In this document: in pieces, positions 1,548 through 2,387 of the stretch
How positions within the stretch are numbered: position 1 is the first letter of the stretch
Layout of the letters: every line of letters starts with the position of its first letter
DNA from: Acidobacteriota bacterium
Lineage (GTDB): Bacteria > Acidobacteriota > Thermoanaerobaculia > Multivoradales > JAHZIX01
Length of the DNA: 64,000 nt
Assembly (NCBI GenBank): GCA_034211275.1
Contig: JAXHTF010000001.1
Span: 120,590 to 184,589 of the forward strand
Direction: 5' to 3'
Made by a program: the position numbers and the translations under genes
Notes under the pieces: generated by a model
The model's input: the letters and a program-made list of their open reading frames with translations, nothing else
What the model was told of the DNA's origin: nothing
Databases searched by the model: none

Positions 1548-2387
1548 TCAGCCATCGCCCCCGGAGGCACCGATGCGCTCCAGCACTTCGCGCTCCTGAG
1601 CGTCGAGGTCGCCGGGGGGCGCTGCGTCGACCTTCTCCCGGCGCTTGGAGTTGACCCGGGTGTAGCGGTTCACCGCCAGCCGCAGCCAAGCGTAGAGACC
1701 GGGGCGGGGCAGATCGAGATCCCGCAGCAGGCCAGCGAAGCCGCTGACGGTGCGCAGCCTGGCGAGCTCGATGCGCGCCACCCGCAGATCCCGGGCGCAG
1801 AACCAGCTCTCGTAGTGCCGGCACCGGCGGGCGATCTCCTGGGTGTACCAAAAACACAGCTGGTAGTCCGTCAGCTCCTGCCAGCCGGGCAGCGGCAACA
1901 CATGGGGATCCTCCGGCGACAAATACCAGCGCAGCCCCTGGACACTGCGGCCAGGGACAGTTTCCAGGCGCAGCATGCTCAGTGCCACCGCCCGGGATTC
2001 CCGGGAGAGGATCACCAGATCCGGCCGCAGCCCGAGCTCCACCAGGGGCTCGAGAAAGCCTTTGCAGAAGAGATGACTGGTCTCGGCGTAGAGCTTACCC
2101 TCCACCGCCGCCATGGCCGGGAGCTTCTCCTCGAGGAGAAAACGCCGGGCGAGATCCGGATCCTGCTGTGCCTCGCGCATCACCTCGGTGAGCCAGGGCC
2201 GCGGCTCGTGGCGGGCGGCGAGACCGGGCACCAGGCCCAGGACGGCGGTGAGAAAGCCGGTGCCGCTGCGGCCGGTGGTGCAGGTGAGGATCAACCGGCG
2301 CCGGGAGAGGGCCCGCACCGCCTCCTCCGGCGACAGCTTCGGAGCGCCCTCGGGAGTGGAAGTGGGAGTGGGAGTGGAATCCGCCAT
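1548..2387 (-). CDS. putative PAPS-dependent sulfotransferase (stand-alone)
   Basis: 279 aa. LILTCTTGRSGTGFL resembles the 5'-PSB P-loop (RSGS/T) of bacterial Stf0/CurM-type sulfotransferases. Divergent from the first NRPS gene, with a 59-nt intergenic gap. Confidence 0.45.
   Translation of the reverse strand: MADSTPTPTSTPEGAPKLSPEEAVRALSRRRLILTCTTGRSGTGFLTAVLGLVPGLAARHEPRPWLTEVMREAQQDPDLARRFLLEEKLPAMAAVEGKLYAETSHLFCKGFLEPLVELGLRPDLVILSRESRAVALSMLRLETVPGRSVQGLRWYLSPEDPHVLPLPGWQELTDYQLCFWYTQEIARRCRHYESWFCARDLRVARIELARLRTVSGFAGLLRDLDLPRPGLYAWLRLAVNRYTRVNSKRREKVDAAPPGDLDAQEREVLERIGASGGDG

Follow-up and report, generated by a model that had tools for sequence, protein, structure and literature searches.

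A stand-alone, probably PAPS-dependent sulfotransferase of a widespread unannotated family beside hybrid NRPS-PKS genes of an Acidobacteriota bacterium

The sulfotransferase (ST) superfamily is defined by a 5'-phosphosulfate-binding (5'-PSB) and a 3'-phosphate-binding (3'-PB) motif, and its member TPST2, a human tyrosylprotein sulfotransferase (TPST), uses R78, E99 and K158, with an Arg-to-Glu spacing of 21 (PMC10951654). In the CurM and OLS systems, an ST domain sulfates the carrier-bound beta-hydroxyl, making it a leaving group (PMC11730487). Here we describe a stand-alone gene of this fold in a 64,000-nt stretch of an Acidobacteriota genome (GCA_034211275.1, contig JAXHTF010000001.1, positions 120,590 to 184,589 of the forward strand), hereafter the window. 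The gene (1548..2387, minus strand, ATG start, 279 aa; NCBI locus tag SX243_00385) lies beside megasynthase genes combining non-ribosomal peptide synthetase (NRPS) and polyketide synthase (PKS) modules, and very probably encodes a sulfotransferase dependent on 3'-phosphoadenosine 5'-phosphosulfate (PAPS), belonging to a widespread, unannotated family. The reading we favour, with reasonable though not strong confidence, is that a soluble enzyme of this glycan-derived family was captured by the NRPS-PKS cluster and tailors its product in trans, a sugar being the likeliest acceptor.

The best fold matches of the 279-aa protein in the Protein Data Bank (PDB) are TPSTs (human TPST1 and TPST2 and the tick enzyme; PDB 5wri, 3ap3, 8w5z), with 15-16% identity and TM-scores of about 0.5. 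Unlike them, it is a cytoplasmic bacterial enzyme without membrane anchor, and its context gives no support for peptide tyrosine as acceptor. In contrast to the ST domains of CurM and OLS (4gbm, 4gox), it stands alone, is not fused after a carrier and has no thioesterase (TE) following, and its family-specific invariant blocks HEP, ETSHLFCKGF and DYQLCYWY are missing from CurM-ST. StaL (A47934, PDB 2ov8) and Cpz8 (PDB 9kf2) match its structure less well than the TPSTs do. Their families are recognised by Pfam, whereas the 279-aa protein is not, and they are of the natural-product tailoring type, whereas the present family, outside its NRPS-linked clade, is one of polysaccharide biosynthesis. 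No sequence-family relationship was detectable with Stf0, Stf1 and Stf9 (1tex, 2zq5, 2z6v) or with heparan-sulfate N- and 3-O-sulfotransferases; compared with such carbohydrate sulfotransferases, it is the gene context that points to a sugar acceptor here. Literature searches returned no paper that describes this family, nor one on a similar cluster of Acidobacteriota, and a tblastn search of annotated plasmids for characterised relatives (e.g. the synechan xss sulfotransferases, pSYSM) gave no match.

The open reading frame (ORF) 1548..2387 is a genuine gene and not a chance ORF of 70% GC sequence, because its codon-position GC (GC3 0.85, GC2 0.51) matches that of the neighbouring genes, homologues are numerous, an identical database entry exists (SX243_00385, "hypothetical protein", from an Acidobacteriota metagenome-assembled genome), and dN/dS amounts to 0.18 for the closest orthologue and to 0.33-0.43 for those further away. 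A word-index search gave at least 220 homologues, and an exhaustive profile search returned 1,537 clusters at 50% identity, 364 of these with E<=1e-30. The plus-strand ORF that overlaps it (1515..2450) lacks a coding-type codon profile. The original prediction had described a 279-aa protein with an RSGT motif, transcribed divergently 59 nt from the first NRPS gene. Both points are borne out: G39-R40-S41-G42-T43 is encoded at 2259-2273 (minus strand), and the megasynthase ORF starts at 2447 (plus strand), leaving a divergent intergenic region of 59 nt (2388..2446).

The same prediction had assigned the protein to the sulfotransferase fold from that one short motif, an assignment now upheld by a confident AlphaFold model, by Foldseek matches and by 5'-PSB and 3'-PB motifs conserved at 98-99%. 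The protein is not recognised at the curated gathering threshold of either Sulfotransfer_1 (PF00685) or Sulfotransfer_3 (PF13469). When 42 members were scanned singly, sub-threshold matches appeared to Sulfotransfer_1 in 19 (best E=5.9e-5) and to Sulfotransfer_3 in 10 (E=0.004), and no other family recurred among them. A profile of 42 family sequences (alignment A1) searched against PDB sequences found human SULT2B1 at a non-significant E of 1.8, with both aligned stretches falling on sulfotransferase motifs (TTGRSGT against YPKSGTT, and RxxRxVAxS against RNPRDVVVS). The AlphaFold2 model built on A1 (pLDDT 91.4, pTM 0.89) has strands alternating with helices, forming one alpha/beta domain built on a central parallel beta-sheet, which is the sulfotransferase fold. 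The best 50 Foldseek matches in the PDB are all PAPS-dependent sulfotransferases, including the tick TPST (E=2.3e-5), CurM-ST (E=1.5e-4), SULT1C2, TPST1/2, Stf0 and OLS-ST. A kinase-type P-loop NTPase, the outcome against which the original prediction had been set, was rejected, since the loop T-T-G-R-S-G-T-G has no Walker-A lysine and does not fit GxxxxGK[ST].

The complete set of PAPS-binding motifs is present. The 5'-PSB loop G39-R40-S41-G42-T43, of the [KR]-x-G-[ST]-[ST] type, lies in the model between strand 31-36 and helix 43-50, and aligns with KSGTT of SULT2B1 and PRSGST of CurM-ST. The 3'-PB motif R-x7-S is R129...S137 (codons 1977..2003, minus strand), with R129 ending strand 123-128 and S137 within helix 131-140; it aligns with RNPRDVVVS of SULT2B1 and with R-H-P-x5-S of CurM-ST and OLS-ST. 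Counted in a set of 267 family sequences, R40 is kept in 254/257, G42 in 255/257, E61 in 258/261, R129 in 264/266 and S137 in 263/266 (98-99%), and H60 in 259/261. The residues invariant in A1 are G39, R40, G42, H60, E61, K88, E102, H105, C108-K109-G110-F111, R129, S137, Q176, W180-Y181, E184 and R188. Within this set, E61 (H60-E61 codons 2205..2210, minus strand) is a candidate catalytic base, lying 21 residues past the PSB arginine, the same Arg-to-Glu spacing as in CurM-ST and TPST2. The Glu of the PPEL motif is reportedly the catalytic base of CurM-ST (McCarthy et al. 2012). An HHalign alignment with the CurM/OLS group, used for residue correspondence alone and not as proof of homology, pairs GRSGT with PRSGST, E61 with this Glu, and R129...S137 with R-H-P-x5-S.

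Homologues were found in Desulfobulbales (including the cable bacteria Electrothrix and Electronema), Planctomycetota, Verrucomicrobiota (Opitutales, Puniceicoccaceae), Thermodesulfovibrionales, Bacteroidota, Alpha- and Gammaproteobacteria, Myxococcota and Acidobacteriota. One member comes from a cultured strain, Stieleria magnilauensis, and all members that we met are labelled "hypothetical". Multi-domain members are fused with glycosyltransferases (GT2, GT21, GT-D), with Methyltransf_24/23 or with a Wzx-type flippase, and the sampled loci are clusters of glycosyltransferase, methyltransferase and sugar-nucleotide genes. In a tblastn census of 90 loci, about half have glycosyltransferase neighbours, and NRPS/PKS neighbours are limited to the closest relatives of the window protein. 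One operon (L093) combines Wzx, GT4 genes and three recognised Sulfotransfer_1/3 genes with a family member. This context suggests that the general and ancestral role of the family is to sulfate sugars in the course of glycan biosynthesis.

The NRPS-linked proteins group in a single clade within this glycan-associated family (neighbour-joining tree, no bootstrap), and their gene order is strongly conserved. In the window, the ST gene is followed tail-to-tail, with 1 nt between, by the 3' part of an ADOP-family duplicated MacB/FtsX-type permease (8..1546, plus strand; TIGR03434, E=6e-168). All homologues with at least 61% identity share the layout of a divergent megasynthase gene 1, the ST gene and a convergent ADOP permease (P0002, with 85%, P0004, P0003, P0006, P0008 and the window sequence on a Logan contig). 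The intergenic spacing is 50-59 nt in four orthologous clusters and 29 nt, as called, in a fifth (L001). In these clusters, the permease is co-transcribed downstream of a gene X that it overlaps by 4 nt. X would lie to the left of the window and is itself a PKS-NRPS, with the domains KS-...-T-C-A-T-TE (KS, ketosynthase; T, carrier; C, condensation; A, adenylation). The order NRPS <- / -> ST / <- ADOP <- X(T-TE) recurs unchanged in six independent contigs, with identities of 61-85%. The ST gene thus lies inside the cluster, flanked by two megasynthase operons, and X provides the thioesterase that genes 1-3 are without. Identity to the window copy is 86/68/66/65/61/55% for the ST, 89/72/70/57/66/46% for gene 1 and 94/75/74/67/68/54% for the permease. 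Since ST identity tracks that of gene 1 and the permease, and dN/dS is 0.18-0.43, the three were inherited as a unit under purifying selection. The most distant of these loci (L007) shows the same cluster in rearranged form, with a gene-1 orthologue (46%), X, the ADOP permease and the ST (55%).

Gene X encodes 2,280 aa in L001 (L001:13446-20288), with a GT2 glycosyltransferase gene divergent from it, also seen in L008 (4845-5900), L089, L091 and L092. Its TE motif, GYCIGG, suggests a possible Cys nucleophile.

The short intergenic region seems to contain the promoter of the ST gene. An extended -10-like element, TGCTACAGT (TGn + TAnAnT; 2397..2405, minus strand), ends 9 nt before the start codon and is kept as TGCTAGAGT, TGCTAGACT or TGCTAGATT in 4 of the 5 aligned orthologous regions, with the consensus TGCTA(G/C)A(G/C/T)T. 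A sigma-70 consensus scan of the region found no full promoter, and no Shine-Dalgarno sequence precedes the gene. The element and the missing Shine-Dalgarno sequence suggest that the ST gene has its own promoter and a leaderless or nearly leaderless mRNA.

As to the acceptor, all four adenylation domains of the window were read as specific for Gly (DILQLGLIWK and DILQLGLVWK in gene 1, followed by DILQLGLIWK and DILQLGMVWK), using a reference segment that yields the canonical code of GrsA. On this reading, the peptide part has no side-chain hydroxyl to offer. A TPST-like tyrosine sulfation of the peptide was set aside on this ground, the family being moreover glycan-linked. A sugar or a polyketide/acyl hydroxyl is thus the probable acceptor. 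In the sister group of the NRPS-linked clade (L007 and L090), the ST gene and the stop codon of a GT2 gene overlap, and the GT2 orthologue adjoins X in L001 and L002, with 44-47% identity against about 30% to other GT2s. A sugar added by this co-inherited GT2 would be the most likely acceptor, and a polyketide beta-hydroxyl or, as gene 1 starts with a C domain, an acyl-chain hydroxyl the second choice. A further candidate is the product of the monooxygenase embedded in gene 2.

The sister locus L090 (388-5999, on a Logan contig from SRR24786907) is compact, with genes for an aminoacyl-tRNA synthetase/BshC-like ligase, a GT2, the ST-family protein, a PIG-L deacetylase and a carbamoyltransferase. 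Its combination of glycosyltransfer, de-N-acetylation and aminoacyl ligation is that of mycothiol/bacillithiol-type pathways, to which sulfation and carbamoylation are added. It may represent an ancestral module that gave both the ST gene and a 461-aa orphan gene of the window cluster (30643-32028). This orphan was also considered as a dedicated partner of the ST, which we largely reject: although it adjoins a family member in L090, it sits behind a terminal NRPS C domain, with no ST-like gene within 10 kb, in 8 of 9 informative metagenome loci.

In the mechanism we propose, the strand-loop-helix around G39-R40-S-G-T43 would hold the 5'-phosphosulfate of PAPS, while R129 and S137 would hold its 3'-phosphate. 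E61, possibly with H60, H105 or K109, would deprotonate the acceptor hydroxyl, which would attack the sulfuryl group in-line, like in TPST and CurM-ST. From an ancestral role in sulfating sugars of polysaccharide or glycoconjugate pathways, one clade may have entered an acidobacterial hybrid NRPS-PKS cluster by a single capture and then been inherited as a fixed part of it. The gene, placed between the X(...T-TE)-ADOP permease operon and the operon of genes 1-3, would be expressed from the short divergent promoter, its product acting in trans as the decorating sulfotransferase, with the GT2-derived sugar or, as next choice, a polyketide/acyl-derived hydroxyl as acceptor. A second ST domain, embedded in gene 2 and of the CurM type, would act in cis on a carrier-bound intermediate. 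The data establish that the gene is real, along with its fold and motifs, how the family is distributed, and the clade and its synteny; use of PAPS, the part played by single catalytic residues, membership of the pathway and the acceptor are inferred.

Several of our results weigh against this interpretation. Searched alone, the 279-aa protein has zero Pfam matches even at E<=10 and none in NCBIfam or among PDB sequences, and the TM-scores of its fold matches are modest (0.4-0.55). The profile-profile alignment with CurM-ST, OLS-ST and the gene-2 domain is weak (HHalign probability 6%, 157 columns), and the catalytic roles proposed for E61, H105 and K109 are tentative. PAPS-biosynthesis genes, which the original prediction proposed to look for near the cluster, did not turn up in the whole 64-kb window, where neither an adenosine 5'-phosphosulfate (APS) kinase nor an ATP sulfurylase is encoded. 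The GT2 gene was seen in relatives alone, the window ending before the matching position. The ST gene is monocistronic and on the strand opposite to the megasynthases, with which its co-expression is putative. Finally, the six syntenic contigs are all from related Acidobacteriota, and part of the synteny is explained by shared ancestry.

These last two points also fit another explanation, which we regard as unlikely, namely that the protein is a genuine sulfotransferase unrelated to the NRPS-PKS product, such as an envelope or exopolysaccharide sugar ST trapped between two operons and vertically kept. The overwhelming glycan association of the family agrees with it, and the adjacency of the permease need not be functional, ADOP permeases being very numerous in Acidobacteria. 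However, megasynthase genes lie on both sides of the ST gene, and its position holds to 61% identity, and to 55% in the rearranged L007, while the neighbours diverge in parallel. Moreover, no other glycan-biosynthesis gene is found beside it in the window, and the NRPS-linked copies form one clade.

The embedded domain noted by the original prediction (gene 2, 17239..18171, plus strand) is indeed a CurM/OLS-type ST, with a Sulfotransfer_3 match of E=4e-27 (residues 1163-1374), E=1e-64 to CurM-ST 4gbm and E=3e-61 to OLS-ST 4gox. In a further, improbable alternative, the stand-alone protein would also be an activating enzyme, sulfating in trans a hydroxyl of a carrier-bound or released intermediate, with the sulfate then eliminated (by dehydration, cyclisation or decarboxylative elimination) and none left in the product. 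Sulfation followed by elimination is established for the CurM/OLS group (PMC11730487), the activating domains CurM-ST and OLS-ST are among the fold neighbours, and hydroxyl-generating steps are at hand in the PKS modules and in a luciferase-like monooxygenase within a Gly A domain. Yet in-line chemistry is already provided for by the dedicated CurM-type domain of the cluster, and elsewhere the context of the family is stable glycan decoration beside ordinary sulfotransferases. The gene-2 domain is embedded after a carrier domain and strongly similar to CurM-ST, as expected of a CurM/OLS-type activating domain; neither holds for the stand-alone protein, and HHalign gives a probability of 4-6% between the latter and the embedded domain or the CurM/OLS group. 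The two sulfotransferases of the cluster belong to different lineages, the stand-alone one being no close paralogue of the gene-2 domain nor a close relative of the CurM/OLS group. It is very improbable that the protein has an ST/NMP-kinase-like fold without being a sulfotransferase, as a kinase-type phosphotransferase, a non-catalytic PAP(S) binder or an enzyme with another nucleotide donor, given the missing Walker-A lysine and the Foldseek matches described above.

Bacterial sulfated polysaccharides and natural products are considered uncommon, partly since the enzymes are hard to recognise. The present family is invisible to Pfam and NCBIfam, yet has a complete PAPS-binding signature and occurs in hundreds of glycan loci of many phyla. 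We tentatively suggest that it may be an unrecognised, widespread family of bacterial carbohydrate sulfotransferases (about 1,500 clusters) that marks missed sulfated-glycan pathways, and that the present cluster may make a sulfated glyco-conjugate from a Gly-rich NRPS-PKS product with two mechanistically different sulfotransferases. For this cluster, a sulfate ester is predicted on the product, possibly glycosylated, with a division of labour between the CurM-type domain in cis and a decorating enzyme in trans. A family profile would make it easier to annotate sulfated-glycan biosynthesis as well as biosynthetic clusters, in which genome mining now misses this tailoring step. The divergent, unannotated sequence family is new; the kind of enzyme and its chemistry are already well known and were to be expected, so that the surprise is moderate.

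According to Pfam, the three megasynthase genes on the plus strand encode C-A(Gly)-T-KS-AT-...-T-C-A(Gly)-T in gene 1 (2447..13741; AT, acyltransferase), C-A(Gly)-T-ST-C-A(Gly-like, interrupted)-T in gene 2 (13822..23745; Pfam with sequence inspection) and KS-AT-KR-DH-T-C, with a terminal condensation domain, in gene 3 (23742..30626; KR, ketoreductase; DH, dehydratase). The position of the ST domain in gene 2 is unusual, after the peptidyl carrier of a Gly module and before a C domain, with no adjacent TE, where the canonical CurM/OLS arrangement is an acyl carrier-ST-TE terminus. In the second module of gene 2 (about 19500-23745, plus strand), the Gly-type A domain is interrupted by a luciferase-like monooxygenase (Bac_luciferase, residues 2237-2531) and carries an FkbM-type methyltransferase (residues 2880-3073) as an insertion close to its C-terminus. 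This A-monooxygenase arrangement is reminiscent of MtaG in the myxothiazol pathway, in which Gly is hydroxylated at the alpha position to give a terminal amide. In gene 1, a tandem repeat GTVSS-GTVSS-GTVSS (residues ~2090-2110; 8700-8760) sits in a region of about 600 residues without Pfam assignment, between the AT and the next carrier domain, and a similar TSRTVTSTTVTSRSV stretch is found at the equivalent place in gene X of L001.

Other genes in the window encode an ABC exporter, a CsgG-like protein, a Ser/Thr kinase, a radical SAM enzyme, a ferrochelatase, gyrA/gyrB and others, besides a type III PKS operon. The latter (42002-47125, minus strand) contains genes for an FAD monooxygenase, a FAAL-like AMP-ligase, an ICMT-family methyltransferase and the type III PKS. 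It resembles the srs-type operons for alkylresorcinols or phenolic lipids, and is probably a separate small biosynthetic cluster.
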